DNA of 64,000 bases from Chloroflexota bacterium (GTDB lineage Bacteria > Chloroflexota > UBA11872 > VXOZ01): positions 2,439,045 through 2,503,044 of the forward strand of contig OZ244814.1 of assembly GCA_965220175.1 (NCBI GenBank), read 5' to 3'. Made by a program: the position numbers and the translations under genes. The notes beneath the pieces were generated by a model. It made no database searches and had not been told where the DNA came from. It saw nothing but the letters and a program-made list of their open reading frames with translations. Each line of letters starts with the position of its first letter. Positions within the stretch are counted from its first letter, which is position 1. This document shows positions 13,047 to 44,097 of this stretch, piece after piece.

Positions 13047-13130
13047 TGCACTCTCTCTACAGCGCAAGGTGTATGGCTAGACCCTTGGCCTGCCGCAGCC
13101 TAGACTATCCAATCTCGCGATTCCATCTCG

Positions 13131-13766: not shown

Positions 13767-13796
13767 GGAGTGGCATTCCTTGGAGCCACATCTCTT

Positions 13797-15767: not shown

Positions 15768-15772
15768 TCGTT

Positions 15773-20453: not shown

Positions 20454-22070
20454 CTAATTTGGGACCTCCAGCGTCCTTACCCGGCTAGAGAGGGTGAGAG
20501 CATCAACCTGTTGATAGCTGCTCGTTTCGATTACGTGAATCTTAGGATCGCTTTCCTCGGCAATATAGAGATACTTGCCGTCGCTCGAGAGTGCCATAGT
20601 GCGCGGGCGCTGCCCGACCGGAAACGTGTCCATTACCTCCAGGGTTTCCGGGTCAAGCACCTGGCAGTACCCAAGCACCCCGTTGAGCACATAGAGGTTT
20701 TGCGAATTCGGATGCAGCGCGAGCGCAATTGAGCCGCTACTGGTGGTTGTGCCCGGCACCACCGTCCCTTCGTGGATGTCGACGATCGCCAGGACTCCAG
20801 AGTCTATTAATGTAGTGAACAGGCGCTTCCCGTCGGGGGACATGACGCTCCGTCCTGGATTCTCCTTGACCTCAATTGTTCGGAGTACGGCGAGGGGAGT
20901 TGTACTGAGTACCGTAATAGTCTTGCTCCAGTGTCCCACGTGAATGAGGCGGGAACCATCCGGGGTCAGAATTAGTTGACCGAAAGACGGAATGTCCGTG
21001 ACGCTGGCGGTCACGCGCCGGGACTCCAAATCGATCGACACAATCCGGTATATCCGGTCGTCACTGTCACTTTGAAACCGCATGAGACCGTAGAGGGTCT
21101 TTTCATCCAAGGGCCGCAGCGACAAGAATGTCGGCTGCGTATAGTCGCTCTTGATTTCCATCCATTCGTCTTCTTCACCAGTGACAGCGTCGAAGCGTAC
21201 TATCGAACCGCCGAAGCGGCCGCTGTAGAGGTAACGGCCATCCACACTGCGGACAAGACTATACGTTTGGGACACATCCTCATACCGTATGATTGATAGA
21301 TTGCTTGCAGTGTCAATAAGGGTGAGCGAGTTGTCGATGCCGCCAACAAACAGGCGCCCCCCGGCGCTTGGGATCAAGGTAACCGGCACTTCGGTTTCGC
21401 GTCGCTTTACTTCAACTTCAGCGCGTACGAGCGCATGGTCAATATTGCGCACGCCAACAATGTAGTTTCCTAACGGCACCTCCGGAATAGTCGCCTTGCC
21501 GTCATCCTGGGTGAATGCCTCGGCCAAGAGCTGGCCGACCGCGTCGTAGAGAGAAACGTGTGCGCCGGACAAGGGCCGGTCACCGCTGCCCGATACGGCC
21601 ACCACGAGCGGCCAGCCGCTTCGTGAGACCTGAAGAGGGAGCGTTAACTCTAGCTCACGCCCACGCGGGGTCTCGCCGCGTGCCACCAAGAGCAAGGAGT
21701 TCTCGCCAAGCAGCGGCAAATCGACAGGCAACACGAAGGGAATGCGAAATGTCCCAAATTCGTCCGCCCAAGTATGGCCGACCGTGACCGCTGATTCACC
21801 GTTTGGATACGTGAGTTGCAACCGAATGAGGGCGCCCTCCGGCCAGTGCGCGCCGGTGATGAAGACGGTTGCGCCGAGTTCGGCTCGGCCCGGGAGCACG
21901 CTTACGACCGGGTCTCCATCTTCACTCATTTCAAGTACCGGCAACGGATAGTCCGGAACACCGCGCAAGCGGTCAAGGAGCGCGCCCGCAAAACCTAAGA
22001 TGAGAACCAATCCTACGATTGAGAGCAGACTAATGACGAGCGCGCGTGTGCGATTTGTTGAGAGCGCCAT
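20454..22070 (-). CDS. Membrane-anchored protein with carboxypeptidase-regulatory-like (prealbumin fold) domain and YVTN-type beta-propeller repeats
   Basis: 538 aa with an N-terminal TM helix. A CarbopepD_reg-like segment is present (VSLYDAVGQ..GKATIPEVPLGNYIV), followed by repeated SPDGKRLF / SSDGKYLYIA propeller blades. Confidence 0.6.
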   Translation of the reverse strand: MALSTNRTRALVISLLSIVGLVLILGFAGALLDRLRGVPDYPLPVLEMSEDGDPVVSVLPGRAELGATVFITGAHWPEGALIRLQLTYPNGESAVTVGHTWADEFGTFRIPFVLPVDLPLLGENSLLLVARGETPRGRELELTLPLQVSRSGWPLVVAVSGSGDRPLSGAHVSLYDAVGQLLAEAFTQDDGKATIPEVPLGNYIVGVRNIDHALVRAEVEVKRRETEVPVTLIPSAGGRLFVGGIDNSLTLIDTASNLSIIRYEDVSQTYSLVRSVDGRYLYSGRFGGSIVRFDAVTGEEDEWMEIKSDYTQPTFLSLRPLDEKTLYGLMRFQSDSDDRIYRIVSIDLESRRVTASVTDIPSFGQLILTPDGSRLIHVGHWSKTITVLSTTPLAVLRTIEVKENPGRSVMSPDGKRLFTTLIDSGVLAIVDIHEGTVVPGTTTSSGSIALALHPNSQNLYVLNGVLGYCQVLDPETLEVMDTFPVGQRPRTMALSSDGKYLYIAEESDPKIHVIETSSYQQVDALTLSSRVRTLEVPN

Positions 22071-22296
22071 CGAGGCTCCTTGGCTGTTTCCTTGACAAGC
22101 TCAATGGTACTCCTGGTTACCGTTTGCAAGCAATACGCCTCTATAGCGTATCCCGGCGCAACGCTGCGTACCTTCCTGCCAGTCGATCTGACTGGAGAGT
22201 TGAGACCTGATTGGTTACTTGAACGGGATCAATAGCAAGCCTACACAGCATGGGCGCGTGACGGTGGAGAAGCGAACGCAACAGGCCTATAGAGCA

Positions 22297-22326
22297 TTGA
22301 ACTGCGGCAACTGGGTAGCGTATAGT
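22297..22326 (+). promoter_or_regulatory. Candidate sigma70 promoter TTGAAC-18-TATAGT upstream of the plus-strand catabolic cluster
   Basis: The hexamers are read directly; they lie about 110 nt upstream of the 22440 ATG in a divergent intergenic region. Confidence 0.3.
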
Positions 22327-22439
22327 CTCACTGTGTGCACGTTTGCCCCAGCCCAGAGTTTGCCAGCGGGCCTCGGCTTTCGTGCTAGTCTATTCAAGGT
22401 GACCGTACGGCCAAGTACCACGACAGCAAGGTCGGTAGC

Positions 22440-23384
22440 ATGAAGTTCCTGCTCTTTACGAAGCGTCTTGAACATCTCTCCCTGGAAGAGCTGGCCGCGA
22501 CAGTCGCGGGCCTGGGCCTAGATGGCGTGGATTTGACGGTGCGCGGCGCCGGACACAATTTGCCGGAGGCGGCGGCCGGCACTGCCGGCCACGTCATACC
22601 TGAACGAGTGCATACCGATCTCCCGCGGGCTGCTGCAATTTGCCGTGCCCATGGACTTGAAATTGGTTGGATCACTACCGACATTACGAGCGCCGCCACA
22701 CCGTACGCCCGTGAAGTGATCGCTGGGTTAAGTGAGTGCGGCATTCCACAGTTCAAGCTCGGCTATCACCACTACGATGGCTTTGGCCACCTGCGGCGGC
22801 AGCTCGACGCGATGCGGCGCGACCTGGAAAGCATAGAAAAGCTCTGCCTGCAATATGGTGTACAGGCCGGTGTCCACGTTCACGCGGGCTACTGCTTGTC
22901 TGCTGAAGCGATGCAGGTAGAACGCGTGGTAGCCGACTTCGACCCCGCGGCTATTGGCATCTACGCCGACCTCGGTCATATGGGCCTGGAAGGCGCTTAC
23001 GGCGGCTGGGTGCAAAGTCTCGACCTGATTTCCGAGCGGCTGATCATGCTCTCCCTGAAGAACGTAGGGCTGTTTCCTTTTACCGGCGCGGACGACTCCG
23101 GTCGCCGTTCCCATGTGCGCCCGGCGCTGTTCGACCAGCCATCAAACGCCTCAGGGGGTGAAGTGATGTGGGAGAGCAAGTTTGTGCCGTTGAGGGAAGG
23201 CATCACGCCGTACCGCGAGGCATTCTACTACCTCAAGCAGATTGGCTACAGCAACTACGCCTGCTTCCACACCGAGTATCAAGGTGCGTGGAGTTGGCGG
23301 GAACTCTCATATCCCGAATTAATCGAGCAGCTCAAAGACGACCTCGCCTACGTACGAGAAATCACGGCTGAGCTTAATATGTAG
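22440..23384 (+). CDS. Sugar phosphate isomerase/epimerase (xylose-isomerase-like TIM barrel; IolE/MocC-like)
   Basis: 314 aa with the AP-endonuclease-2/TIM-barrel pattern (GLDGVDL, metal-ligand His/Glu/Asp distributed through the barrel). Confidence 0.75.
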   Translation: MKFLLFTKRLEHLSLEELAATVAGLGLDGVDLTVRGAGHNLPEAAAGTAGHVIPERVHTDLPRAAAICRAHGLEIGWITTDITSAATPYAREVIAGLSECGIPQFKLGYHHYDGFGHLRRQLDAMRRDLESIEKLCLQYGVQAGVHVHAGYCLSAEAMQVERVVADFDPAAIGIYADLGHMGLEGAYGGWVQSLDLISERLIMLSLKNVGLFPFTGADDSGRRSHVRPALFDQPSNASGGEVMWESKFVPLREGITPYREAFYYLKQIGYSNYACFHTEYQGAWSWRELSYPELIEQLKDDLAYVREITAELNM

Positions 23385-23508
23385 CAATTCCCATTTATGG
23401 GGTCTGAAGGATCATACAACTTTCAGGTCGATACTCAAGAGTTGAGGCTTATGTAAGGTACAGTCTCTCGGTGTACTGGGCGCAATGCCATAGAAACAGG
23501 AGGCGGTC

Positions 23509-24525
23509 GTGAGTTTCCGCATCGGTTTGATCGGACTGGAACAGCACGTCGAACGCGTGTTTGGTGCTGTGGACAACGACCCGGAGATTGCTCTCGTAGC
23601 GGTTGCCAACGCGGGCGAGCAGAGCGCTGAGATTGCCGAAAAGTACCAGGCCGAAACCTACGATGACTATCACGATCTGCTGGCCCGCGACGACATTGAT
23701 GTGATTGCCAGTTTTCAGTTGCCGGTCCTGCAAGGCGAAACGGTAATTGCGGCGCTGGAAGCCGGCTACCCTGTGCTATCAGAGAAGCCCATGGCGACGC
23801 GGCAGGACGAGCTTGACCGCATCATCGGCATACTTCAGGAGAATTCCAACCTTCATGTAGGACAACTCTTCAGTCGACGGGGCAATCCGGTCTACCGGGC
23901 CGTGCGCGATGTGGTGCAGAGTGGCCGGATAGGTGAGGTGGCGTTGGCCTACGCGCTCATCGCCGCCACTGAGCGGCGCGGTGTGCGGCCGGAGTGGTTC
24001 TTCGACCGCAGGCTCTCCGCCGGGCCGGTGCTCGACTTGCTCATTCACGACATCGACATTGTGCGCTGGATCACCGGCCTCGAGTATCGGAGCGTCATCG
24101 GCACGGAAGCCAACATCGGCCGCCCGGACGATCCCCACTACCATAACGTCGGACAGGTGCTGTTTAGCATGGACGGCGGGGTGAGCGCCGTGCTCGAGCA
24201 CCATCGTCTTGTGCCGCCGAGTTTGGGACGCATGGACAACCGCCTCAAAGTCCTCGGCACCGAGGGGCAGGCGGAAATCACCCATGACGGCAAAGTATGG
24301 CTCTATGGCTGGGATGAATCTCAGGAGTTGACCGACTTGCCGGCGCAGCAGGACATCTTCGCCAATTTTGTCCGCGCCGCCTGTGCGGGCCAAACACCCA
24401 TCGTGAGCACGCAGGATGCGGTGCAAAGCATGCAAGCCACTCTCTCCGCTACTGAGGCCGGCTATAGCGGGACTCAGAAGCAGGTGCCGCCGGTACCAAT
24501 TCTGCCGGAACGCACAGCCCCATAG
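23509..24525 (+). CDS. Gfo/Idh/MocA-family NAD(P)-dependent oxidoreductase
   Basis: N-terminal Rossmann fold (FRIGLIGLEQHV), the EKP motif (VLSEKPMA) and a C-terminal alpha/beta domain. Confidence 0.85.
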   Translation: MSFRIGLIGLEQHVERVFGAVDNDPEIALVAVANAGEQSAEIAEKYQAETYDDYHDLLARDDIDVIASFQLPVLQGETVIAALEAGYPVLSEKPMATRQDELDRIIGILQENSNLHVGQLFSRRGNPVYRAVRDVVQSGRIGEVALAYALIAATERRGVRPEWFFDRRLSAGPVLDLLIHDIDIVRWITGLEYRSVIGTEANIGRPDDPHYHNVGQVLFSMDGGVSAVLEHHRLVPPSLGRMDNRLKVLGTEGQAEITHDGKVWLYGWDESQELTDLPAQQDIFANFVRAACAGQTPIVSTQDAVQSMQATLSATEAGYSGTQKQVPPVPILPERTAP

Positions 24526-24625
24526 GCCGAGCCTACAGGACGGGATTAGTCTTTCGTTTTGTGGATTCCCCTCGAGCCAGCCGTCAAGTTTACCAGGGCG
24601 GGAAGAGTCAGTACTCCTACACTGA

Positions 24626-25690
24626 TTGGAGTGTAAGGCTGCGCTTCAAGCAAGGGAAAAACGGTTGAAGTACATAGTTGATGCCAGCCCTGCTATGCCA
24701 CACCAGGGCACAACCCTGGCCTCCTGCCTCTGTCCGTTGCTGCAAGCCGTCGGCCGGCCGGAGTGGACTATGGCGCGCTTGCAGGGTGTTCTGGGTCATG
24801 CCTTCCAATTTGATATGAAGGAGGGCGGCCAGCACGTCAATCACGATCATTTTGACTGGGGGCCTGCCCTGGATCTCTTGCCACAGATCGTGCAATTCCG
24901 GACATTCATGGCTAACGAGCAGGACGCGGACATTGACTTGCCGGCGCTAAAGCGAGAAGTGAGAGACTCTGTAGTTTCCGGTCTAAAGCGTGGCATTCCC
25001 GCGCTGGCGTGGTCCCCCATGAGCCGGGAAATCGCGGCGAGCCACCACCACGGCGTGTGCTGGGGCTTGCTCATTGGCTATGACGAGACGGATGAGACGT
25101 ACACAATCCGTCACCCGTTCGTCAATGGCGCCTACGCTGTGCGATACGACGAAATCGGACACGCAGAAGCGGAGGAGTCGATCTGGGTCATGCCTTACGA
25201 CGGGCCCAGCACTGCGGACGAGCGAGCAACGCATATCACGGCGCTACGCAACGCCGTAGCCTATGCACACGCGAGGCGATATGCGGAAGACGACGAGCGC
25301 AACGCCAATCGGCGCGCGCTTCCGCACGGCTTCGCAGCCTATGACGTCTGGCAGCAGGCCTTTGAATCGGAAGATGTGCCGGTTAATGTTACCCACCACC
25401 ATCTCGAGATGCTGATGTACCGGCGGGTTGCGGCTGCAGCATATCTGCGGGAGCTTGCCGATTTCTTTCCTGCAGCGGCCAAGAGCCTGGAGGCGGCGGC
25501 GCATTCCTATGACCGTGAAATGGACTCGCTAAACCCGCTCCACGATCTCTGCGACACCGCTTGTGACAGAGAATCGTGGCTGGCAGAGGACAGGGCGCAG
25601 GCGCGGCAATTCATCGGTAGCGCTTTGGAGTCAGACCGCGAGGCAATTGCCAGTATTGAGGCTGGGCTCGCAATACTTGAAGAAAACTAA
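24626..25690 (+). CDS. Conserved protein of unknown function, paralog 1 (conserved Cys near the N-terminus, His-rich motifs); start uncertain (possible TTG at 24665 or ATG at 24695)
   Basis: About 60% identical to the downstream ORF. Shared motifs are GTTLASCLCPL, RPEW.MARLQGV.GHAF.F.M, DWGPALD, HHxxCWGL.GY.ET.ETYT.RHPF, RYD.IGHA, and AAAAYLREL..FPAA. Confidence 0.6.
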   Translation: MECKAALQAREKRLKYIVDASPAMPHQGTTLASCLCPLLQAVGRPEWTMARLQGVLGHAFQFDMKEGGQHVNHDHFDWGPALDLLPQIVQFRTFMANEQDADIDLPALKREVRDSVVSGLKRGIPALAWSPMSREIAASHHHGVCWGLLIGYDETDETYTIRHPFVNGAYAVRYDEIGHAEAEESIWVMPYDGPSTADERATHITALRNAVAYAHARRYAEDDERNANRRALPHGFAAYDVWQQAFESEDVPVNVTHHHLEMLMYRRVAAAAYLRELADFFPAAAKSLEAAAHSYDREMDSLNPLHDLCDTACDRESWLAEDRAQARQFIGSALESDREAIASIEAGLAILEEN

Positions 25691-25712
25691 CGTGCCGGAT
25701 CTTGAACAGAAC

Positions 25713-26744
25713 ATGATTGTCGAGATCGACGTTCACCCGTATCTTCCACACGATGGGACAACGCTTGCTTCCTGCCTTTGCCCGCTAATGCAATCCGTCG
25801 GCCGACCGGAGTGGTCGATGGCGCGGCTGCAGGGCGTCATGGGGCATGCTTTCCACTTTGAGATGGCCAAGGGTGGGGGCGACGTCATGCACGACAACAT
25901 CGACTGGGGGCCCGCCTTGGACTTCCTCCCGGTATTCGCGCAGTTCCGTGCCTTCAAAGCAACCAAGCACGATGCTGACGTCGATCTTCCCGCGCTGAAG
26001 CGAGAGGCAAGGGACACCGTTCGCGCCGGTCTGAAGAACGGCTTTCCCGCGCTGGTGTGGCAGCCAATGAACCTGAAACAGAAGGCAAGCGATCACCCGG
26101 CGCACCACGCGTACTGCTGGGGGCTGATCGTTGGATATAACGAAACGGAAGAGACATACACGGTTCGTCACCCGTTTGTAGACTGCACCTACACCGTTCG
26201 CTACGACGACATCGGACATGCGGATCCGGCTGAGTTGTTCAGCATTCTGGCGTACGAAAATTCGAGCTCAGCAGACGTCAATGTGGTGCATCTGACGGCA
26301 TTGAAAAACGCCGTCGCCTTCGCGCACGCCACTCGATTCGCGGCTGATGATGAGGCCAATGCCAGGCGGAGAGCCCGTCCGCATGGTTTGGCAGCCTACG
26401 CACTCTGGCGTGAAGCGTTCACTGCAGAAGATGTCCCCACGTTCAAATCCCATCACCACATCACCGTACTGGCGGCGCGGCGTCGTGCGGCGGCCGCGTA
26501 TCTGCGCGAGCTCGTTGCAATCTTTCCTGCAGCCGACGGACACCTTGAAGCAGCGGCAGCTCATTACGATCATGAAGCGGAACCACTAGATGCCATCCAC
26601 AATCTCTGCAATACGGCCTGCGATGAAGACAAGTGGAGTGCGGAGAACCGAGCTCAGGTGGGCGGATTGATCGGCGACGCATTGCTCTGTGAAACAAAGG
26701 CAATTGCCGCCATCGAGACGGCACTCACGATGCTGGATAGGTAA
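25713..26744 (+). CDS. Conserved protein of unknown function, paralog 2
   Basis: 343 aa from the ATG at 25713 (the ORF is open from 25563 and overlaps the paralog 1 stop). Motifs are the same as in paralog 1. Confidence 0.6.
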   Translation: MIVEIDVHPYLPHDGTTLASCLCPLMQSVGRPEWSMARLQGVMGHAFHFEMAKGGGDVMHDNIDWGPALDFLPVFAQFRAFKATKHDADVDLPALKREARDTVRAGLKNGFPALVWQPMNLKQKASDHPAHHAYCWGLIVGYNETEETYTVRHPFVDCTYTVRYDDIGHADPAELFSILAYENSSSADVNVVHLTALKNAVAFAHATRFAADDEANARRRARPHGLAAYALWREAFTAEDVPTFKSHHHITVLAARRRAAAAYLRELVAIFPAADGHLEAAAAHYDHEAEPLDAIHNLCNTACDEDKWSAENRAQVGGLIGDALLCETKAIAAIETALTMLDR

Positions 26745-26823
26745 CAAACTAAATTCTTGACTGATTGCGCGAATAATGTATAGACTACCCGCATGACGAT
26801 GCAGTGGGCGGGAGAGTGCGCGG

Positions 26824-27627
26824 GTGATTATTGACGTACATTCCCACGTCAAGAACGACCACGAGATCACAGTCTCGCTGCGCAAGGCGCGACGGCACGG
26901 CGTCATCCTCTGCATCAACGTGCTCAACTCAAACAACAACTATCCCCCCACGCTGCCAACCCCTGAGTATGTTGCCGCGTGCAACGACCTTACCTTTAAC
27001 GTAGCCTCCAACAACCCCGATTGCGTGATACCCATGTGGTATCTCAATCCCTACCATCCGCGGGAAATGGAAGCCGAACTTAAGCGCCGCGTAGGAGCCT
27101 GGGACGGCCATCAGGGCGCGAAGCTTTGGACCGGCGTGAAAGCCAATGATCCGCGCTTGGAAGGCATCTATGCGCTTCTCGCCGAATACAAACTGCCGGT
27201 ACTCCAGCACACCTACATGGCGGTGACGGGGAACATGCCCGGCGAGACCAACCCCTTCGAAATGCGCGAGGCCGGGCTCCGGCATCCCGATGTCAGTTTC
27301 TTCTTCGGCCACTCCGGCAGCGACATGGAGTACGGCGCTAAGGCCGCCCAAGGCGTGTCCAACCTCTTCATGGACATCGGTGGCGGCGACGCTACTAATG
27401 GCTATACCGAGACGCTCGTGGAGCACGCAGGAGCGGATCGCGTCGTATACGGCAGCGACCTCAACGCGCCGCGCTCGTTCATGTCACAACTGGCGAAAGT
27501 GTACGGGGCGGACATTCCCGATGAGGAGAAGGAACTGATTCTCTGGCGGAACGCCCACGGCATCTTTACACGGCAGACAGTCGCTTGGAGCCAATTTGAC
27601 CGGCATCAGAAGGCGGCTGAGCAGTAA
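26824..27627 (+). CDS. Amidohydrolase-2 family metal-dependent hydrolase (TIM barrel; ACMSD/LigI-like)
   Basis: The N-terminus IIDVHSHV is the typical His-x-His metal site. GTG start, 267 aa. Confidence 0.7.
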   Translation: MIIDVHSHVKNDHEITVSLRKARRHGVILCINVLNSNNNYPPTLPTPEYVAACNDLTFNVASNNPDCVIPMWYLNPYHPREMEAELKRRVGAWDGHQGAKLWTGVKANDPRLEGIYALLAEYKLPVLQHTYMAVTGNMPGETNPFEMREAGLRHPDVSFFFGHSGSDMEYGAKAAQGVSNLFMDIGGGDATNGYTETLVEHAGADRVVYGSDLNAPRSFMSQLAKVYGADIPDEEKELILWRNAHGIFTRQTVAWSQFDRHQKAAEQ

Positions 27628-27647
27628 GAGTCACGACTTCGTGAATT

Positions 27648-27716
27648 GTCATTCCGGCGAATGCCGGAATCTAGTGGGCGGAAGAAAAGATGGATTCCCG
27701 CATTCGCGGGAATGAC
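27648..27716. repeat. Pair of near-identical 24-nt hairpin elements in inverted orientation (GTCATTCCGGCGAATGCCGGAATC ... GATTCCCGCATTCGCGGGAATGAC)
   Basis: Each unit is a 7-bp-stem palindrome with GTCATT/AATGAC flanks. The two copies are reverse complements of each other differing at one stem position, separated by 21 nt, in the gap between the two amidohydrolase genes. Confidence 0.5.
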
Positions 27717-27776
27717 GGCCGAGTAATCACTTCCTTTCTAAGTCAAGAGATCACCGAAGCAGTTTGAGCAAAGTCT

Positions 27777-28607
27777 ATGATTGACGCGAATGCGTACATC
27801 GGCGAGTGGCCCTTCCGCCGGCTCAATCACGCGGCGCCGGACGCGCTGCTGCGCAAGATGGACGCGCTTGGCATTGAGAAGGCGGTGGTCTCGCGGCTGG
27901 AAAACGTCTTTTACAAAGACGTGATGGTGGGCAACCGCGAATTGCACGGCATTGTGCAGCAGCATCCGGACCGGTTTGTGCCTGCCTACACAATCAACTC
28001 CGCTATGCCAGGTTGGGAACTGGACTTCCAGCGCTGCGTCGAGGAATACGGCATGCGCAACTTGCGCATTCACCCCAACTACCACCAGTTCACGCTGCTG
28101 GAGCCGCACACCACGCGCGTCATGGACGCCAGTTTGGAAGCGTATGCCCAGTACCACATGCTTTCGAGCAATGCCCTCGCCCTGCTTGAGCGCGCAAGAG
28201 CTCACGATCTCGTCGTGCTCCTCACGCTCACCCTTGAAGATTCCCGCTGGCATCACTGGCACGTTAAGGTGCCGCCGGTCACGACAACCGACGCCGTGGA
28301 AGGCATCTGCACCTTCCCGGACGTACGCTTTCTCGTGTGCACCGGTCGCTACGGGCACATTGCCGACATTTGGCGGCGGGTATACAAGAGTGACAATCTC
28401 TATTTCGACGTTTCCCGCGTGCAGGGACCGGTGGACGACATCGAGCAACTCTGCGCCCAAGTAGGCGCCGAATGCTTGCTCCTGGGCACGAATTGCCCAA
28501 TCTTCTATCCCGAATCCGCCAAGCTCAGTATCGAGCATGCCGAGATCACCGACCAAGAAAAGGAACTGCTGCTCTCCGCTAACGCGAAGCGACTGTTTGC
28601 ACTGTAA
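27777..28607 (+). CDS. Amidohydrolase-2 family metal-dependent hydrolase (second copy, divergent)
   Basis: 276 aa with TIM-barrel hydrolase motifs (IDANAYIGEWPF..; HPNYH; the C-terminus is conserved with the upstream enzyme: EKELLLSANAKRLF vs EKELILWRNAHGIF). Confidence 0.7.
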   Translation: MIDANAYIGEWPFRRLNHAAPDALLRKMDALGIEKAVVSRLENVFYKDVMVGNRELHGIVQQHPDRFVPAYTINSAMPGWELDFQRCVEEYGMRNLRIHPNYHQFTLLEPHTTRVMDASLEAYAQYHMLSSNALALLERARAHDLVVLLTLTLEDSRWHHWHVKVPPVTTTDAVEGICTFPDVRFLVCTGRYGHIADIWRRVYKSDNLYFDVSRVQGPVDDIEQLCAQVGAECLLLGTNCPIFYPESAKLSIEHAEITDQEKELLLSANAKRLFAL

Positions 28608-28619
28608 AGGAAGTGCCCC

Positions 28620-29915
28620 ATGGCCAGCGCGACCAAGCTCGACGTCTCTCGTTCGGTGGAACTCTACGAGGAAGCCGTGCGCCTCATGCCGGGCGGCTCG
28701 CAGACCAAAGGCAAGCGCCCCAACCCTGCGTCGTACGGTGCCATGCCGATATTTATGTCACATGGACGGGGCTCGCGGCTGTGGGATGTTAACGGCAACA
28801 GCTACATTGACTACTACGGCGCTTCCGGCGGTGTCTTGCTGGGGTATTGTCACCCGGATGTAGACCGCGCGGTCGCAGCACAACTTGAAAAGGGCATGCT
28901 CTTCAGCACGCCCTCCGAGCCGGAGATCGCGTGCGCCAAGCTCGTCAACGAGGTCGTGCCCTGCTCCGAGATGGTCCGCTTTTTGAAAGGCGGGGTGGAT
29001 GTAAATCAATGCGCCACACGCATTGCCCGCGCCTACACGAAGCGCGAAATCGTGCTAAACAACGGCTATCGCGGCTGGGCGGACGAATGGAACTACTGGC
29101 GCAACGACGGCGGCATGCCGGCTGCCTTCCACACCCTGAATCAGCAATTCCGCTTTAACGACCTCAACCACCTGGAAGAACTCTTCGCGCTCAACGACGG
29201 CAAGGTCGCCGCGGTCTCTTTCGATTGCGCAGAACCGCTCAAGGAACCGGAGCCAGGATTCCTGCAGGACCTCAAGGACTTGGCGCACCGACACGGGGCG
29301 CTGGTGATTTACGACGAGTGCATGACGGGCTTCCGTTTTGCCCTGGGCGGCGCGCAGGAGTACTACGGCGTGGAGCCGGACATAGCTACCTACGCCAAAG
29401 GCATGGCCAACGGCATGTCGCTCGGGGCGGTGGCCGGCAGCCGCGAAATCATGGAAAAGACTGCCGACTGTTTGATTAGCCTGACGTTTGGCGGCGAAAC
29501 CCTCTCCCTCGTGGCAAGCATTGCCACGCTGCAGATCTGCCGCGACGAGGACGTGGCGGGCCACATTAACCGCATCTCGCAAGCTGTCATGGACGGCGTG
29601 GAGGAGGTCTCGCACCGCGTGGGCATTCCGATGGAGTCGTTCGGCCCGCCGGCGTTGTTCGGCATCAGGTTCATTGCCGGCGATGAGCCGCTGCCCGCCG
29701 ACGCCGGTACGTTCTTCTACACCGGTCTCGCCAAGCGCGGTGTGATGCTCAAGGGCTCCTGGAACAACGTGCTCTACGCCCACAGCGACGAGGACGTGGC
29801 GGAGACGCTGGAGGCGGTGGAGGATACATTGTTGGACCTGCGGCGCGCGCGGGATGCGGGAAGGGTGTCGGAGGAGGTTGCTGTGGCTACCGTACCATTT
29901 AACCGTCCCTACTAG
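28620..29915 (+). CDS. Class-III PLP-dependent aminotransferase (glutamate-1-semialdehyde aminomutase-like)
   Basis: 431 aa starting at 28620, 13 nt after the upstream amidohydrolase-2 gene. Motifs: GGSQTKGKRP, SGGVLLGYCHP, the YDECMTGFR region, and TYAKGMANG (Lys in the PLP-binding context). Confidence 0.85.
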   Translation: MASATKLDVSRSVELYEEAVRLMPGGSQTKGKRPNPASYGAMPIFMSHGRGSRLWDVNGNSYIDYYGASGGVLLGYCHPDVDRAVAAQLEKGMLFSTPSEPEIACAKLVNEVVPCSEMVRFLKGGVDVNQCATRIARAYTKREIVLNNGYRGWADEWNYWRNDGGMPAAFHTLNQQFRFNDLNHLEELFALNDGKVAAVSFDCAEPLKEPEPGFLQDLKDLAHRHGALVIYDECMTGFRFALGGAQEYYGVEPDIATYAKGMANGMSLGAVAGSREIMEKTADCLISLTFGGETLSLVASIATLQICRDEDVAGHINRISQAVMDGVEEVSHRVGIPMESFGPPALFGIRFIAGDEPLPADAGTFFYTGLAKRGVMLKGSWNNVLYAHSDEDVAETLEAVEDTLLDLRRARDAGRVSEEVAVATVPFNRPY

Positions 29916-30158
29916 CGCCAATAAGCAAAAGCAAGACAACTGAGCACAAATACCTAACCTGTGCTTCGACAAGCTCAGCACGAACGGAAAGCTAGGTCAA
30001 CACGATTCAATGCGAATTAACCACGAACAACAATCTTGACATAAATAACCATTCGGTGTTTAGCCGTTCGCCCTGAGCCTGTCGAAGGGCAAGTTTACCA
30101 AGAGCGAATCATGTGGGAGGCGGATCGAGGATTTTATTCGATCGAGGAATAGTCGGTC

Positions 30159-30998
30159 GTGCAAGGAAATTCCATGGCCACATTTCACATGCCCGTGCGC
30201 TCCTATCGCGTCCACCCACTCCCCGGGCAGGCGTATGACGACCGCAACTACGGCCACGTGCACAAGACGGTAGCGCTGGATACCGGCAACACGGCCGTCA
30301 TCGCCATCGACATGTGGAATCTCGGCGGCGACGGCGAACCCATCATTCCCGGTGTGGACAAGTACTGGGAATACAACTACATGGGCGGGCACGGCGTGGC
30401 GAAGCGGGCCGGCAAGATCATGCAGGAAGAGATCGTACCGGTGCTGGCGGCGGCGCGCGAGGCCGGTGTGCCGGTCGTTCACAACGAACCGCCCCAAATC
30501 CTCGCGCGCTATCCCGGGTATGTGCCGCCGGAACCATCCAAAAAATCCAGCGACGACACCCCCGATTGGCCGCCGCCCGCATTTCGCCGTGAGTTGTTGG
30601 CCGAATACTACCGGACGGTCTTTGGCGAGGGATACGCAGAACCCTGGCGGAAGATCCGCGACAACTACGACTTTGCCGACTGCGTCAAACCCGACCCACG
30701 CGACTTCCTTTTCTCCCAGCCTCAGCAAATAGAGGGTTTCCTCAAAGAACATAATATCCTCAATCTCGTATACGTCGGCTTCCTCTTGAACTTCTGCCTG
30801 CTCATGAAGCCCGGCGGCATTCTGCAGACACGCAACCGCTTTCGCACCATTGTGCTGCGGGACTGCACCGCCGCCTCGGAGACGGCGTGGTCCACCGGCG
30901 AAAACCTGATGACCAAGGCATTCATCCACTGGCTGGAAATCGGCGGCGCGCTCACCGCCACAGGAGAAGATTTCAGCAAGTCACTCTCGTCTGCGTAG
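30159..30998 (+). CDS. Isochorismatase-like cysteine hydrolase family protein (start uncertain)
   Basis: The TAVIAIDMWN segment resembles the isochorismatase-family ..VIDMQN.. motif. 279 aa. Confidence 0.5.
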   Translation: MQGNSMATFHMPVRSYRVHPLPGQAYDDRNYGHVHKTVALDTGNTAVIAIDMWNLGGDGEPIIPGVDKYWEYNYMGGHGVAKRAGKIMQEEIVPVLAAAREAGVPVVHNEPPQILARYPGYVPPEPSKKSSDDTPDWPPPAFRRELLAEYYRTVFGEGYAEPWRKIRDNYDFADCVKPDPRDFLFSQPQQIEGFLKEHNILNLVYVGFLLNFCLLMKPGGILQTRNRFRTIVLRDCTAASETAWSTGENLMTKAFIHWLEIGGALTATGEDFSKSLSSA

Positions 30999-31098
30999 CC
31001 CAGCGCGACAGGGAAAGGAGGTCGTGCCTACAAGCGCCTTGGGAAAGAGGGCGCAAACAAGACAATTTAAGCAAAGAAGACCCTTCAGGAGGGTTGTT

Positions 31099-32532
31099 AT
31101 GCGTAACACATTCAGCAGCTTGAGTAGACGGCGTTTTCTCGCCGGTGCCGGAGGTCTCAGCGGTGCCGCCCTTCTTGCCGCTTGCGGTGTGGCCCAGGCT
31201 CCAACCGATGCGCCGGTGGCCGATGACGCGCCGGAGGCTGAAGACGCTCCCACGAAGGAGCCCGCAACCGTCAACATACGGTGGATCGTGAACGTTGCCG
31301 AAAACGCCCAAGCGTTTGAGGACGGGGTGATCAACCGGTTCAGGGAAATGCACCCCGACATCGATCTCAAGTACGAGGGATCCCCGTATCGAGCGCATTA
31401 TGACAAGATGCTGGCCGAACTGGCCGCGAACGAGGCCATCGACATCCTCACGCCCGACCCCACGCGGTGGATTGAGTGGACGGACAAGGGGTTTGTGCGA
31501 GAAGTCACCGACCTTTACAAGCGCGACCAGACTCAACTCGGAGACACCGTGGCGCTTGACTGGATTGTCGACCCGCAGGGACGCTTCTGGTCCATGCCCT
31601 ATACGGCGCTCGGCACCATCCACATCTACAATACGTCCATCTTCGACAAATATGGGATCAGCGAGCCGCCGCGGCAGTGGAATGCCAGTGACGGCGGCGA
31701 GTACATTGACGTCGCGCGGGAGATTACGAGTAGGTCCAGCAGCGAACCGGATCCGATTTGGGGCATTTACACCGGCGCTGACTACACGACCGAGTTGAGC
31801 ACCTACGTCGTGCAGAACGGCGGCAATTTCCTCTCCGACGACCTGAGGCGTGCAACCATGCACGAGCCTGAGTTCATCGAGGCCATACAGTTTATGTATG
31901 ACCTTGAATTCAAGTACCGTGTGGCCCCGCCCGCAGAAGCGAAGGCTGCGTTCAGAGAGACCCTGGGCGAGGGCCGGCACCGCGACGCGCTGTTCGTGCA
32001 CGGGCGCGCGGCGATGAACAATACCTGGTTCAACGCCGAGAGCGGCTGGACCCACCCTGACGTGGAAAACCTGCCCATGAAGGCTGTGCCCATGCTGGAG
32101 AGCAGCAAGGCAGGGCCTACATCCAATAAGGTTGCCGGTTGGACCGCGGTGCAATACATGTGGTCCGGCGCAAAGCACCCGGACGCTGTCTGGGAGTTCA
32201 TGAAGTTCGCCATGTCGGACATCGAGTTCGGTGTGGCGGTGACAACGCTGCTCAACTACGGTCTGTCGGCGAACGCAAACGCATGGGACGATCCCCGCCT
32301 GGTGGCAACGAAAACTCGTCCGCCTCGCGAGATAGACTCCATTGCCACGCCGCTCCGGGAAGGCCGCGGCTTTATCACCCAGATCTTCCCCGGCTGGCGG
32401 GAGCACTTGGGATTTTTCAACGAGCAGAAGTCACTGGTGTGGAAGCAGGAGCTCACCGTTGAGGAAGCCATGCAGAACTCCAGCAAACACACGCAAGCGG
32501 TTATTGACGCGTATTGGGCCGACAAAGAGTAA
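31099..32532 (+). CDS. ABC-transporter extracellular solute-binding protein (family 1, sugar-type) with Tat signal and lipobox
   Basis: RRRFLAGAGGLSGAALLAACG marks a Tat motif plus lipobox Cys. A CAGGAGGG RBS lies 6 nt upstream. The mature domain is about 440 aa. No permease or ATPase gene is adjacent. Confidence 0.8.
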   Translation: MRNTFSSLSRRRFLAGAGGLSGAALLAACGVAQAPTDAPVADDAPEAEDAPTKEPATVNIRWIVNVAENAQAFEDGVINRFREMHPDIDLKYEGSPYRAHYDKMLAELAANEAIDILTPDPTRWIEWTDKGFVREVTDLYKRDQTQLGDTVALDWIVDPQGRFWSMPYTALGTIHIYNTSIFDKYGISEPPRQWNASDGGEYIDVAREITSRSSSEPDPIWGIYTGADYTTELSTYVVQNGGNFLSDDLRRATMHEPEFIEAIQFMYDLEFKYRVAPPAEAKAAFRETLGEGRHRDALFVHGRAAMNNTWFNAESGWTHPDVENLPMKAVPMLESSKAGPTSNKVAGWTAVQYMWSGAKHPDAVWEFMKFAMSDIEFGVAVTTLLNYGLSANANAWDDPRLVATKTRPPREIDSIATPLREGRGFITQIFPGWREHLGFFNEQKSLVWKQELTVEEAMQNSSKHTQAVIDAYWADKE

Positions 32533-32540
32533 AGATATCA

Positions 32541-32575
32541 GCAAGGGGCGATTGTCAATAATCGTCCCTTGCTTT
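32541..32575 (+). terminator. Rho-independent terminator-like hairpin (GCAAGGGGCGAT-tgtcaata-ATCGTCCCTTGC followed by TTT)
   Basis: Stem-loop begins 9 nt after the stop of the first SBP gene. Confidence 0.45.
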
Positions 32576-32734
32576 AGAATTGACACAGCGAAGTTGAGCA
32601 TATTCAAAGCCCAGTGAATGCTGGCCGGAAAGGAGTTCTAGGTGGGGGGTAGCAATCTGCGCCCGAGATTCTAGAACTCAATCTGCCATGGGCGCACGTG
32701 TGTCGTTCGCAGTCAATTCTGGAGGAAACGAAAG

Positions 32735-34168
32735 ATGACCGAACAACGAACAAGCATCACGCGTCGTGGACTCTTAGCGACATCGGCGGGCGCGGGCACC
32801 ATGGCCGTGTTTGCTGCCTGTGGTGTGGCGCAAGCTCCGGCTGCCGCGCCGGAGGCCGACGATGCGCCTAAGTCAGAAGACATGCCTGCGATGGAAGAGG
32901 CGACGGTCAGCGTTAATTGGGTCGTAAACATACATGAGAACGCGGGGGCTTTTGAGGACCTCGTACTCGGCCCCTTCAAGGAATTGCATCCCAACATCAC
33001 GGTCAACTGGCAGTCCATGGCGTATCGGGCGCTCATGGAAAAGCAGGTCGTGGAACTCGCTGCCGGATCCTCGCCGGACATTCTCGGCCCGGAACCCACC
33101 CGCTATCCTCAATATCGGGACGCCGGCTATATCGCTGACTTAACACCTTATGTTAAGCGCGACGCGGCCGCGATCGCCGACGTGGTGGGCATCGACTGGC
33201 TGCAGGACCCCGAAGGCAAGTCTTGGACATTCCCCTACGGCGTGCTGGCTACTATCCAGATCTACAACACGGCCCTTCTCGACAAGTTCGGCATCAACGA
33301 ACCGCCGAAGTCCTGGAATCCCAGTGACGGCGGGGAATTGCTTGAGACAGCACGCGAGATCACGCAGCGCTCCAGCGCCGATCAGAATCCCATCTGGGGC
33401 TTCTATAGTCGCAATGACTCCACCACCGAAGTGCCGACGATGCTCATTCAGAACGGCACGAACTTTGTCTCCGACGATTACTCCCGCTTCCGGCTGCACG
33501 AACCTGAATTCATCGACGTCATTCAGTTCCTGTATGACCTTGAATTCAAGTACCGCGTCAAGCCGACCCGGGAAGACGTGGCGGCGCTCAACGACACCAT
33601 TCCGGCGGAACAACGACGTGATTCACCGTTCGTGCACCAGCGCGCCGCGGTTTTCCACACGTGGTTCAACACAGAATCCGGCTGGAACGTACCGGGGGTC
33701 GAGGAATTACCGGTCAAAGCGCGGCGCTTCCCGGCCCACAGCGTGCAGAGCGAAAACTCGGATGCGGTGGGCAGCTACACGCCGGTGCAATACATGTGGT
33801 CGGGCGCCAAGTCTCCGGACGCCACGTGGGAGTTGATAAAGTTCATCAGCACCGATCTCGAGGTGCAGGTCGGCGTTACCACGTTGCTCAACTACGGCAT
33901 GCCCGTGGTCAAATCGGCGTGGGACGACCCACGCTTGGCGGAGCAGAAGGCGCGTCCGCCGCGCGAACTCACTCCGATCACGGAGCCGATTGGCGAGGGC
34001 AACGGCTTCATGACCCAAATCTACCCCAACTATGTTGACATTCGCCGGGTCTACCTGGACCACGTGAACATGGCGTGGAAGCAGGAAATGACTGTAGCGG
34101 ATGCCATGCAGAGCGCCGGCAAGATCATGCAGGAGATGATTGACGAGTATTACGCCAACAAGAGCTAG
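32735..34168 (+). CDS. ABC-transporter extracellular solute-binding protein, paralog of 31099..32532 (Tat signal and lipobox)
   Basis: TRRGLLATSAGAGTMAVFAACG signal. About 50% identical to the upstream SBP (shared YDLEFKYRV, QYMWSGAK, GVTTLLNYG). Confidence 0.8.
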   Translation: MTEQRTSITRRGLLATSAGAGTMAVFAACGVAQAPAAAPEADDAPKSEDMPAMEEATVSVNWVVNIHENAGAFEDLVLGPFKELHPNITVNWQSMAYRALMEKQVVELAAGSSPDILGPEPTRYPQYRDAGYIADLTPYVKRDAAAIADVVGIDWLQDPEGKSWTFPYGVLATIQIYNTALLDKFGINEPPKSWNPSDGGELLETAREITQRSSADQNPIWGFYSRNDSTTEVPTMLIQNGTNFVSDDYSRFRLHEPEFIDVIQFLYDLEFKYRVKPTREDVAALNDTIPAEQRRDSPFVHQRAAVFHTWFNTESGWNVPGVEELPVKARRFPAHSVQSENSDAVGSYTPVQYMWSGAKSPDATWELIKFISTDLEVQVGVTTLLNYGMPVVKSAWDDPRLAEQKARPPRELTPITEPIGEGNGFMTQIYPNYVDIRRVYLDHVNMAWKQEMTVADAMQSAGKIMQEMIDEYYANKS

Positions 34169-34199
34169 GGCTCGCTCTTTCCTGTGTAGTTATGGCCAG

Positions 34200-34240
34200 A
34201 CGTTCGCCCCTTTGGAAACGAGGGGGCGAACGTTTATTTT
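34200..34240 (+). terminator. Strong rho-independent terminator (11-bp GC-rich stem ACGTTCGCCCC / GGGGCGAACGT, followed by TTATTTT)
   Basis: A perfect stem plus U-tract is read directly, 32 nt after the stop of the second SBP gene. Confidence 0.7.
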
Positions 34241-34411
34241 CACCCCAATTCTTGGCACGGCTATTGCCCTATGAACTTGAAGTGAAGCCTCGAGAATTCG
34301 CGCCATCTCTAGATTGTGTTGTCATTTCGTGGCACTCTGTAAATCTAAGGCATTCTGTCATTTCGAGCGCAGCGAGAAATCTAGAATCCACACATTAGGA
34401 GTCTAAAGAGC

Positions 34412-34813
34412 ATGGCATTAGTAAAGAAAACTGTTCTCGGTGAGGGCGTGTGCCCGCCCTTCAGCAATTTTTCGCAAGGCCTGATGATCGATGGCGTCAA
34501 GCGCGTCCTCTTCATCGCGGGCCAGTTTCCGGTAGACGAGAACGGCGAACTGGTCGGCAAAGGTGACATCGAAGCCCAGACCCGCAAGGTCTATGCCAAT
34601 ATCGAAGCGCTGTGCAAAGCGGCCGGCGGGTCGCTGGAGAACGTGGCGCACCTTAATATGTACGTCACCGACATCCGCTTCCGCGCGGTCGTCACCGGCA
34701 TCCGCAACGAGATCTTCGCGCCGCCATATCCCACGGCCACCATGGTGCAGATCGGATCGCTATCGGGTGAAGACTGGCTCGTCGAAATCGATGCAATAGC
34801 CGTCTTTGACTAG
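34412..34813 (+). CDS. ridA: RidA/YjgF/L-PSP family reactive-intermediate deaminase
   Basis: 133 aa with the C-terminal RidA signature (PARS-like segment ...ENVAHLNMYVTDI..., ...PATMVQIGSL...). Confidence 0.85.
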   Translation: MALVKKTVLGEGVCPPFSNFSQGLMIDGVKRVLFIAGQFPVDENGELVGKGDIEAQTRKVYANIEALCKAAGGSLENVAHLNMYVTDIRFRAVVTGIRNEIFAPPYPTATMVQIGSLSGEDWLVEIDAIAVFD

Positions 34814-35121
34814 GGTTGCGTCAAGGGCGAGTCTTCACACTGTGCAAAAAATTCTCAGCGTAGAGTAAGACCTAGGTGGGCAAGACCGCGAATTCAATAA
34901 GAATAAGCAGTTGTCAGGCGGCCAATGGACTGAATTGGCAATGGAGAATGCGCGTTGCGGCAGTAAGCGATTGCGGGGCGGTGCGCCATGGTCGGATTGC
35001 CTCAGTGGGTCCGGCTTGCGGTGGCACGCCCTCAGGCTGCGGCAGTCAGAGCCGGCACGATTCCTGATGCCCTACTGAAAGTCAGTAAAGATGTCGGGAA
35101 GGGCACTTCTTTGTAGAGGGA

Positions 35122-35130
35122 TGCTATAAT
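35122..35130 (+). promoter_or_regulatory. Perfect extended -10 element TGcTATAAT inside an 840-bp noncoding gap
   Basis: The motif is read directly. There is no convincing -35, and no credible downstream ORF within 500 nt. Confidence 0.25.
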
Positions 35131-35656
35131 AGGTTGGAAAGTGAGGATTCCACGTACCCTCAATGTCGAGGAAGATCGCGATGACGTGGCACAGCAGGAG
35201 AGCCTTACTTTCACGTAGGGGTGGCACACCTAGCCTCGCCGCCTCGATAGCCCGTGCAGCCCGTCGGCAGCGAGCGCCTGTTCCATGGCGCCAAGCCCTT
35301 TGTGGTAAGTGGGTCTCCGCAAGTATTTCCCGTGCTCGCCAACCGGCGCTGGGCCGTCCTCTTCTTTACCGATTGGAGCCAGCCGTAGCAGCTTGCCAAA
35401 CGCGTCCAATGTCCGCGGATTCTGCAAATCAAGTCAGGACTATGCGTAATAGGCGCACCATCGACAAGGAAGCTCTGCTCACTTCAGGTTCATTCGAATC
35501 CGGACACGGTTCGACTGATGGCTCCCGGAGATTTCGGAGAAACATGGGCGGTATGATTGACACAATAGACCTCTAAGGCACGAACGGTTGCATGATGCAG
35601 TCAATTACAGATGACTATGGAACCTGACGCGATAGACACTTCCGCGGAGTTCTAGC

Positions 35657-41481: not shown

Positions 41482-41539
41482 TGCGGATGGTGCAGTCCAC
41501 ATGACTTGGCAACCCGCCATGGCATAAGAAGAGGGAACC

Positions 41540-44077: not shown

Positions 44078-44097
44078 CCGCGAACCAGGAATCACAC

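Follow-up and report, generated by a model that had tools for sequence, protein, structure and literature searches.

The window analysed here is the whole 64,000-nt stretch of contig OZ244814.1 from a Chloroflexota bacterium (assembly GCA_965220175.1). At positions 22440-34813 it carries a cluster of eleven plus-strand open reading frames (ORFs), here g1 to g11, with no opposite-strand gene in between, as an earlier note made from the sequence alone had described. The cluster combines a sugar-type dehydrogenase and TIM barrel, two members of an orphan protein family, an amidohydrolase-2 (AH2) pair, an aminotransferase, a putative amidase, two binding proteins, and a Rid-family protein, and we tentatively read it as a catabolic locus for an amine-bearing, carbohydrate-like compound. 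Its conserved heart is the g5-g6-g7 module, and the other genes are lineage-specific additions. The genes are as follows.

22440..23384, + strand: g1, xylose-isomerase-like TIM barrel, 314 aa (PF01261)
23509..24525, + strand: g2, Gfo/Idh/MocA NAD(P) oxidoreductase, 338 aa (PF22725, PF01408, PF02894)
24665..25690, + strand: g3, stand-alone protein of predicted BtrH/CtaG/AziU3 fold, copy A, 341 aa
25713..26744, + strand: g4, stand-alone protein of predicted BtrH/CtaG/AziU3 fold, copy B, 343 aa
26824..27627, + strand: g5, AH2, metal-ligand-bearing partner (AH2a), 267 aa (PF04909)
27777..28607, + strand: g6, AH2 without the HxH and Asp ligands (AH2b), 276 aa (Amidohydro_2)
28620..29915, + strand: g7, class-III (glutamate-1-semialdehyde (GSA)-aminomutase-like) pyridoxal phosphate aminotransferase, 431 aa (PF00202)
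30174..30998, + strand: g8, isochorismatase-like (nicotinamidase-type) putative amidase, 274 aa (sub-threshold PF00857)
31099..32532, + strand: g9, CUT1-type sugar ATP-binding cassette (ABC) substrate-binding lipoprotein, 477 aa (PF01547)
32735..34168, + strand: g10, second CUT1-type substrate-binding lipoprotein, paralogue of g9, 477 aa (PF01547, PF13416)
34412..34813, + strand: g11, Rid/YjgF-family protein without the RidA catalytic arginine, 133 aa (PF01042)

Four start codons were refined (g3 at TTG 24665, g4 at 25713, g8 at 30174, and g9 at 31099), that of g3 from orthologue N-termini and an AAGGGA motif 5' of the TTG.

The AH2 pair and its aminotransferase

Pfam placed both g5 and g6 in Amidohydro_2, in agreement with the two AH2 enzymes of the earlier note. 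g5 matched PF04909 at 54 bits and had the full set of metal ligands (HxH on strand 1, His on strands 5 and 6, Asp on strand 8), with family invariants D4, H6, H8, K100, H129, H163, D184, and D212; a profile search of the PDB returned AH2 hydrolases, decarboxylases, and hydratases. g6 had the Pfam match and fold of the family, with DANAY and GTN in place of the ligands, and its own family had an invariant motif (D-x-N...G-x-WPFR, LED-x-R) that has been described in none of the known AH2 enzymes. The predicted model of g6 was an AH2 barrel whose top neighbours were the uncharacterised structures 3cjp and 3irs. Other neighbours included uncharacterised hydrolases, decarboxylases, a COG3618 AH2 protein of Burkholderia (4dlf, which we take to be L-fucono-1,5-lactonase), and the heteromeric AibH1H2, a mixture that does not single out decarboxylase activity for the pair. 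The AH2 TIM-barrel fold is common to g5, g6, AibH1H2, and AH2 lactonases and decarboxylases (4dlf, LigI, ACMSD, LigW). Like AibH1H2-type heteromers, g5 and g6 are two different AH2 subunits encoded side by side, g5 with the full ligand set and g6 without it, but the cluster lacks the reductase or ferredoxin partner that AibH1H2 would need.

The order of the pair was conserved well beyond this lineage. A metagenome scan with a narrow g6 alignment found a g5-like gene directly upstream of the g6-like gene in nearly all of 57 metagenomic loci (24-36% identity), and paralogous loci L047 and L049 had the same order with the genes overlapping by 4 nt. The two were fused into one protein of ~560 aa on three haloarchaeal plasmids, the N-terminal half matching g5 (E 8e-16) and retaining the HxH motif, and the C-terminal half matching g6 (E 1e-34) with the same DANAY motif; fusions also appeared in L099 and L104. 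We infer from gene fusion that g5 and g6 may form one complex, and propose from their recurrent gene association that this putative enzyme works with aminotransferase g7, its chemistry being likewise a prediction from sequence. An isochorismatase-like gene adjoined the AH2 pair in L075 and L082.

Further copies of the pair were seen. L047 is an additional AH2a/AH2b pair elsewhere in the same Chloroflexota genomes (9216-10771, ~52% identical, 4-nt overlap), and one extra pair was flanked by rve-type transposases. Three distant g6 relatives at ~30% identity (P0209, P0210, P0211) began with Tat-type signal peptides (RRQFLKGA, RREFLTVA), so some members of the AH2b family are exported.

g7 matched PF00202 at 151 bits, which bears out its earlier assignment as a class-III aminotransferase. 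Its best curated model was PRK06209 (286 bits against a cut-off of 486), and we rejected it as HemL, the glutamate-1-semialdehyde 2,1-aminomutase, on scores below cut-off for TIGR00713 (240 vs 527 bits) and PRK00062 (242 vs 398). Among solved structures it matched HemL (E 5e-58), the aminopentol aminotransferase FumI (E 3e-40), and the C-6' aminotransferase GenB (E 1e-36), and its solved relatives also include D-phenylglycine aminotransferase. Across the Chloroflexota lineage g7 was 93-97% identical, with a g6-g7 spacer of 12 nt in all 13 loci, and homologues with 36-44% identity lay near AH2 pairs in haloarchaea, L049, L099, and L104.

Cultured haloarchaea carry counterparts of the module. 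In a tblastn search of plasmids, the best matches of g7 (38-41%) and g6 (28-45%) fell on the same haloarchaeal megaplasmids, with the g6-like and g7-like genes 8-14 kb apart in the three regions examined (L044-L046). These megaplasmid islands belong to Haloprofundus salinisoli (NZ_CP083664), Natronosalvus amylolyticus (NZ_CP101160), and Halosolutus gelatinilyticus (NZ_CP095492). All three share with the cluster a g7-like class-III aminotransferase, a g5+g6 fusion, Gfo/Idh/MocA genes, and a TIM barrel. A RidA-family gene occurs in two of them and ABC uptake in one, where the importer accompanies a GH28-related gene. They differ from the cluster in that their RidA proteins are canonical where present, their TIM barrels and Gfo/Idh/MocA proteins are not close to g1 and g2, and they add sulfatases, DegT aminotransferases, and a Zn-dependent alcohol dehydrogenase (3/3 each), a ceramidase-like amidase and a carbon-nitrogen hydrolase (2/3 each), and an AAC(3)-type acetyltransferase (1/3).

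Similar assemblages occurred in metagenomic loci. Within 11 kb, L099, a very high-GC locus read like others of its kind from ORF lists and tblastn, held a Rid gene, two Gfo/Idh/MocA genes, two fused AH2 genes, two sulfatases, a creatininase, and a g7-like aminotransferase, and L104 was similar. L049 paired the AH2 genes with a 44%-identical aminotransferase, DegT, a polysaccharide deacetylase, a sulfatase, and a PP-binding carrier protein. Among 74 neighbours of AH2 pairs in 12 diverse loci, the commonest were Amidohydro_2 (9), DegT sugar aminotransferases (6), Gfo/Idh/MocA (4), and sugar ABC permeases (3). AraC regulators were also seen among the counterparts in haloarchaea and metagenomes. 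AAC(3)-type aminoglycoside N-acetyltransferases lay next to g3/g4-like genes, g8-like genes, and AH2-fusion relatives, three independent contexts. The earlier note had proposed conservation of the gene neighbourhood as a check on its reading. The AH2 pair, class-III aminotransferase, Gfo/Idh/MocA, and Rid genes recur together in haloarchaea, L049, L099, and L104, and the core of the cluster was not refuted.

Dehydrogenase, binding proteins, and the comparison with inositol catabolism

g1 matched the general TIM-barrel family PF01261 (AP_endonuc_2) at 45.9 bits and was 71-93% identical to its orthologues in 13 Chloroflexota loci. It matched no NCBIfam model at E <= 1e-3, so the IolE/MocC-like label of the earlier note is without support although the TIM barrel stands. 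PDB matches of g1 were weak and local (4kw2, E 1.6e-3; IolE 3cny, E 3.4e-3, over the 87 residues 122-208). g2 was likewise a Gfo/Idh/MocA-family protein by all three of its Pfam domains, as the note had it, but not an IolG equivalog. It scored 95.8 bits against a cut-off of 355 for IolG (TIGR04380), 97 of 450 for UDP-GlcNAc 3-dehydrogenase, and 49 of 350 for the Gfo6 xylose dehydrogenase, and it had weak matches, far below cut-off, to disaccharide 3-dehydrogenase and levoglucosan dehydrogenase models. Its best PDB match was 3ip3, a putative oxidoreductase, with inositol dehydrogenases at about E 1e-17.

g8 belongs to a rare family, with 12 clusters in 5.8 billion proteins. The earlier label of isochorismatase-like hydrolase is a putative one, with a PF00857 match below threshold (21.7 bits vs a gathering score of 27); some orthologues have a precomputed PF00857 match. 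Of the Asp-Lys-Cys triad of such hydrolases, the candidates D46 and C208 were invariant and position 172 was K or R; K212 was invariant as well. A distant homologue (38%) adjoined an AAC(3)-type acetyltransferase and an AH2 gene.

The two tandem solute-binding proteins recognised earlier, g9 and g10, were both SBP_bac_1 proteins, and aligned to each other gap-free at 51% identity. In the PDB, the strongest matches of g9 were 1eu8, which binds trehalose and maltose (E 5e-19), and further oligosaccharide-binding proteins. Its N-terminus (RRRFLAG...LLAACG) combines a Tat-like signal with a lipobox, and g10 has the same type of Tat-like lipoprotein signal with the lipobox VFAACG. No BPD_transp_1 or ABC_tran partner was found in the cluster or in 20 large flanking ORFs scanned, and ABC permease and ATPase partners, if any, lie outside the window.

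g11 matched Ribonuc_L-PSP (PF01042) at 87.8 bits and is a member of the Rid/YjgF superfamily. The note's narrower call of RidA did not hold, at 68.1 bits against a cut-off of 106.25 for TIGR00004. Its YPTAT aligns to FPARS of Escherichia coli RidA, placing Ala at Arg105. The argument that RidA implies a reactive enamine or imine is therefore weakened, because g11 is without the catalytic arginine.

These results bear most directly on an inositol- or rhizopine-type pathway, in which g7 would convert an inosamine to an inosose, IolG/MocA-like g2 and IolE/MocC-like g1 would process the ring, the AH2 enzymes would act on ring-cleavage products, and RidA would quench imines. The cluster resembles iol and moc clusters in its Gfo/Idh/MocA dehydrogenase, xylose-isomerase-like TIM barrel, and solute-binding proteins, and an aminotransferase would be required for a cyclitol that bears an amine. 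Although below threshold, IolG ranks among the best matches of g2, and 3cny is a weak local match of g1. DegT-family aminotransferases, a family that includes scyllo-inosose aminotransferases, are among the commonest neighbours of AH2 pairs elsewhere, the AAC(3)-type contexts fit an aminocyclitol, and g3/g4 share the fold of BtrH, which acylates an aminoglycoside. Against this, both g1 and g2 fail the IolE and IolG models and g11 lacks the RidA arginine. IolB, IolC, IolD, IolA, MocD/E/F, and MocR are companion genes expected of an iol/moc pathway, and none was found by Pfam in the eleven genes or 20 flanking ORFs. g9 and g10 are CUT1 oligosaccharide-type binders, a type not known to be used for inositol or rhizopine, and an AH2 heteromer, papain-fold proteins, and an isochorismatase-like amidase are not known to belong to iol or moc clusters. 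The earlier note had taken the TIM-barrel and Gfo/Idh/MocA pair as the core of inositol and rhizopine catabolism; in this cluster, nothing links the pair to either. Such pairs also perform oxidative glycoside cleavage and are thus not diagnostic of inositol catabolism (PMC10628242). In the GlycDH/AtOGE/AtHYD/Gfo operon of Agrobacterium tumefaciens, a TIM-barrel enzyme of "sugar phosphate isomerase" type and a Gfo protein act on glycosides taken up by an ABC system (PMC10628242). Overall we consider an inosamine pathway very unlikely.

Oxidative (3-keto) glycoside cleavage operons are themselves only a partial likeness. They share the TIM barrel and Gfo/Idh/MocA protein with the cluster, and the weak disaccharide 3-dehydrogenase and levoglucosan dehydrogenase matches of g2 point the same way, but those scores are far below cut-off and the known operons are without the aminotransferase, AH2 pair, and amidases.

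The g3/g4 protein family

g3 and g4 are tandem paralogues with 60% identity. They had no match in Pfam (E <= 10), NCBIfam, a phmmer search of the PDB, or a PDB profile search, which leaves the earlier description of two tandem proteins of unrecognised family in place. g3 was identical to database protein P0057 and had a profile match at E 3e-179. The family has about 127 close clusters, all unnamed and without a Pfam domain, and an exhaustive profile search returned at least 1000 cluster representatives of the domain. The AlphaFold2 model was confident (pLDDT 94.6), and its predicted fold, a papain-like N-domain with a helical C-domain, has the bipartite architecture of the papain-like transacylases AziU3, CtaG/BtrH, and CcbD found by fold search. 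A candidate Cys-His-Asp triad consists of C21 (C in 41 of 66 sequences, S in 14, A in 7), H153 (62/66), and D165 (66/66), a plausible counterpart, predicted from sequence conservation, of the similarly spaced C11-H128-D144 of CtaG. Several features set g3/g4 apart from the BtrH/CtaG/AsbE/CcbD/AziU3 group: sequence similarity was undetectable with the Pfam BtrH models (E <= 10) and PDB chains, Pfam found no PP-binding carrier gene in the cluster, roughly one family member in three has Ser or Ala in place of the Cys, the family also includes a sensor domain and a secreted TonB partner, and the context in the window looks catabolic.

Some close relatives of g3/g4 (E 1e-138 or better) make up the extracytoplasmic C-terminal part of BlaR1-type Peptidase_M56 proteins, and others lie C-terminally on ECF sigma factors with or without a transmembrane segment between. 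Tandem arrays of the domain were seen as well, one of them with five copies in an ankyrin-containing protein of 2969 aa (fusions and arrays include P0212, P0215, P0229, P0108, P0224, P0219, and P0268). This architecture suggests a ligand-sensor role for the domain. Because some sensor fusions have Ala or Thr at the nucleophile position, what is conserved may be binding and not hydrolysis. Taken together, g3/g4 look like a previously undescribed family of ligand-recognising, possibly amide-cleaving domains. A 583-aa ECF-sigma protein near the cluster in L012 was considered as a carrier of the domain and rejected; the domain is not in it.

Relatives of g3/g4 were also found in other settings. 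In Latescibacterota and Gemmatimonadota (L016-L018, L020, L022, L039), the gene for a SusC-like TonB-dependent receptor is followed, after 4 nt, by one for a g3/g4-like protein with a signal peptide, and then by one for a ~1600-aa protein with faint BNR and sortilin matches; the receptor and secreted protein look like an outer-membrane uptake unit. In other Latescibacterota (L029-L031, L034, ~5000-17000) the g3/g4-like gene has an acetyltransferase gene of AAC(3) type on either side, one of the two with an ankyrin repeat, within an island of small-molecule-modifying genes (sulfotransferase, arginine-less Rid, tandem-GNAT protein, GFA, NUDIX, GNAT, metallophosphoesterase, and a 439-aa ECF sigma). 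P0097 (516 aa, from a Planctomycetaceae metagenome-assembled genome (MAG)) carries a C-terminal glyoxalase/bleomycin-resistance domain (PF00903), and long ORFs of 578-642 aa in Poribacteria (L025, L026, L028, L032, L035, L036) are perhaps other fusions.

Two alternatives to catabolism arise from this family. The first is a detoxification or resistance set, in which g3/g4 would hydrolyse or bind a bioactive amide, for example an antibiotic or a metabolite of the host or a symbiont, analogous to beta-lactamase and BlaR1, and the neighbours would degrade the released moiety. The Peptidase_M56 and ECF fusions, the AAC(3)-rich Latescibacterota islands, the secreted relatives downstream of TonB-dependent receptors, and the papain-like fold with its candidate triad are all consistent with such a role. 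The g3 and g4 of the window, in contrast, have no signal peptide and are set among a sugar-type dehydrogenase, a TIM barrel, the AH2/aminotransferase module, and sugar-type binders; there is no efflux pump or regulator, and the Ala or Thr of some sensor fusions may point to binding rather than hydrolysis. Detoxification also accounts for g3/g4 and not for the other nine genes, and we regard it as decidedly unlikely.

The second is biosynthesis or modification of an amino-sugar envelope glycan or secondary metabolite, with the Gfo/Idh/MocA protein and aminotransferase installing the amine, the BtrH-like proteins N-acylating it, and the hydrolases trimming intermediates. A Gfo/Idh/MocA dehydrogenase with an aminotransferase is a standard amino-sugar-forming pair. 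The characterised structural relatives of g3/g4 (BtrH, CtaG, CcbD, AziU3) are all biosynthetic, L049 has its carrier protein, DegT, and polysaccharide deacetylase beside the g7-like aminotransferase, and L099 has a Polysacc_synt flippase nearby. Pfam, however, identified no gene in the cluster for a carrier protein, an adenylating enzyme, a glycosyltransferase, a nucleotidyltransferase, or an exporter; two solute-binding proteins (five in L033) are conserved with the cluster, and its counterparts carry the sulfatases, GH28-related protein, ABC importers, and AraC regulators typical of catabolism. We therefore give a biosynthetic role little credence.

Gene order, spread, and proposed function

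The intergenic gaps from g1 to g11 are, in order, 124, 139, 22, 79, 149, 12, 258, 100, 202, and 243 nt. With several above 200 nt, a single operon is not established. The earlier note had ended the cluster in a strong terminator; a scan of 21900-35700 found none after 34813, there was no GC hairpin with a T-run 3' of the g11 stop, and terminator-like and promoter-like sites were at the level expected by chance from shuffled sequence. The local repeat elements it described are the tandem paralogue pairs g3/g4 and g9/g10. Its statement that the cluster has no regulator, permease, or ATPase gene agrees with Pfam scans of the eleven genes and 20 large flanking ORFs. An Rfam scan returned only a distant tRNA-Arg and gave neither a riboswitch nor a leader within the cluster.

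By Pfam, the flanking genes are of housekeeping type (upstream ClpB, DnaJ, DnaK, Lon, and a cell-wall amidase; downstream VanW, Rex, and the nuo operon), and the cluster GC content of 0.58-0.61 matches theirs. Recent horizontal transfer of the cluster was rejected on this basis, the composition giving no sign of it. The proteostasis block (ClpB, DnaJ, DnaK, Lon) occupies 9003-18250 on the minus strand, and the nuo (complex I) operon 40276-51490 on the plus strand, followed by tRNA-Arg(CCG) at 51582-51656. Between g11 and the VanW gene, ~840 nt (34814-35656) hold no convincing gene; the sole ORF (35163-35576, 137 aa, Arg/Ala-rich) has no Pfam or Rfam match and is 54% conserved in L009, and the interval could hold a small gene, a leader, or a non-coding RNA.

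The full eleven-gene order was found only in one Chloroflexota lineage, in about 13 MAGs. The housekeeping flanks were co-conserved with the cluster in 11 of 14 loci, so conservation of the eleven genes is not independent evidence of a functional unit. The g3-like genes vary in copy number and order within the lineage, and two are broken: in L023 (8415-10636) by an inserted 317-aa ORF, and in L033 (10311-11024) by N-terminal truncation. These are possible pseudogenes or assembly errors. L033 also has three extra family-1 binding-protein genes directly upstream of g1 (1699-7628), making five around the cluster with still no permease, and a DDE transposase between g10 and g11 (18947-19915).

The eleven genes may therefore not be one functional unit, with g1-g2, g3/g4, g5-g6-g7, g8, the orphan binders, and the Rid gene adjacent only through inherited synteny. 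Such a mosaic would fit the conserved flanks, the replacement of g8-g11 in L012, the variable and fragmented g3-like genes, the AH2 pair standing alone in L047, the 200-260 nt gaps before g8, g10, and g11, and the chance-level promoter-like and terminator-like sites. It fits less well with eleven co-directional genes uninterrupted on the opposite strand, with L033, which keeps g1-g11 despite a different upstream flank, with the recurrence of at least five gene families (AH2a, AH2b, class-III aminotransferase, Gfo/Idh/MocA, Rid) in unrelated taxa, and with the isochorismatase-like genes beside AH2 pairs in L075 and L082. On balance we think mere adjacency unlikely.

The genome is likely of sponge-symbiont type, judging by its relatives. 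The metagenomic relatives nearest to g6 (91% and 57% identity) lay on MKWU01 contigs, which come from a metagenome of the sponge Aplysina aerophoba, and the study of that metagenome proposed that symbionts feed on host matrix glycans. No relevant paper came up when the literature was searched for this combination of genes in sponge Chloroflexi.

The reading we favour, at somewhat less than an even chance, is a lineage-restricted catabolic (nutrient-scavenging) cluster of sponge-associated-type Chloroflexota for a carbohydrate-like compound that bears an amine and is probably N-acylated, whether an amino sugar or glycoside, an aminocyclitol, or an aminopolyol. It keeps from the earlier aminocyclitol/inosamine proposal the catabolism of an amine-bearing, carbohydrate-like substrate, in line with the recurrence of the AH2, aminotransferase, Gfo/Idh/MocA, and Rid genes, the AAC(3) contexts, and a fold otherwise seen in amide-forming enzymes that act on amino sugars and aminoglycosides; it drops the inosamine specificity for want of IolE, IolG, and their companions.

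From the observed gene families we infer the following flow. The lipoprotein binders g9 and g10 would capture the compound, and an ABC permease and ATPase encoded elsewhere would import it. Amide cleavage by papain-fold, BtrH/CtaG-like g3 and g4 and by isochorismatase-like g8 would free the amine, and g2 would oxidise a hydroxyl, either at C1 to a lactone or at a ring carbon to a ketone. A heteromeric AH2 enzyme (g5 catalytic, g6 partner) would then open or decarboxylate the product, g7, which is probably translationally coupled, would remove the amino group, and g1 would isomerise, dehydrate, or eliminate the keto-intermediate, with an accessory role for the non-canonical Rid protein g11. One variant would be an oxidative amino-sugar route, in which C1 dehydrogenation gives a lactone, an AH2 lactonase yields the aminoaldonate, and transamination gives a 2-keto-aldonate. 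Another would use 3-keto chemistry as in oxidative glycoside cleavage (PMC10628242).

Several observations weigh against this reading. The full arrangement was seen in a single lineage, where the housekeeping flanks are syntenic too, several of the intergenic gaps are longer than 200 nt, and the replacement of g8-g11 in L012 and the fragmented g3-like genes in L023 and L033 show that the set is separable. Homologues of g1, g8, and g3/g4 were not detected in the haloarchaeal islands. There is no permease, ATPase, kinase, aldolase, or regulator in the cluster to complete a pathway, and no cluster gene reaches any curated NCBIfam equivalog cut-off. g6 is without canonical metal ligands and also has AibH1H2-like heteromeric oxygenases as structural neighbours, the nucleophile position of g3/g4 is not invariant, and BtrH-type enzymes are known as biosynthetic, carrier-protein-using transacylases rather than hydrolases.

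A bolder extension, which we think improbable, would make the g3/g4 family papain-fold small-molecule amidases or receptors deployed as a cytoplasmic enzyme, a secreted TonB partner, or a BlaR1/ECF ligand sensor, in the manner of beta-lactamase and BlaR1. With the AH2 heteromer and aminotransferase they would define a new catabolic route for an N-acylated metabolite, either aminoglycoside-like or an aminopolyol, that would be plentiful in sponge holobionts and hypersaline mats.

The cluster is an undescribed variant of a carbohydrate-type catabolic locus, and two of its uncharacterised parts are noteworthy: the sensor/enzyme family of predicted BtrH fold, and the putative AH2 heteromer together with its aminotransferase. 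The finding does not bear on a long-standing open problem. If the favoured reading is true, an AH2a/AH2b heteromer with a GSA-type aminotransferase would be a new enzyme module conserved from Chloroflexota to haloarchaea, and its presence in cultured haloarchaea opens the question to experiment. g3/g4 would represent a new sequence-orphan protein family of BtrH-like fold that bacteria also use as a sensor domain, and sponge symbionts may harvest nitrogen-bearing host glycans or metabolites by this route.

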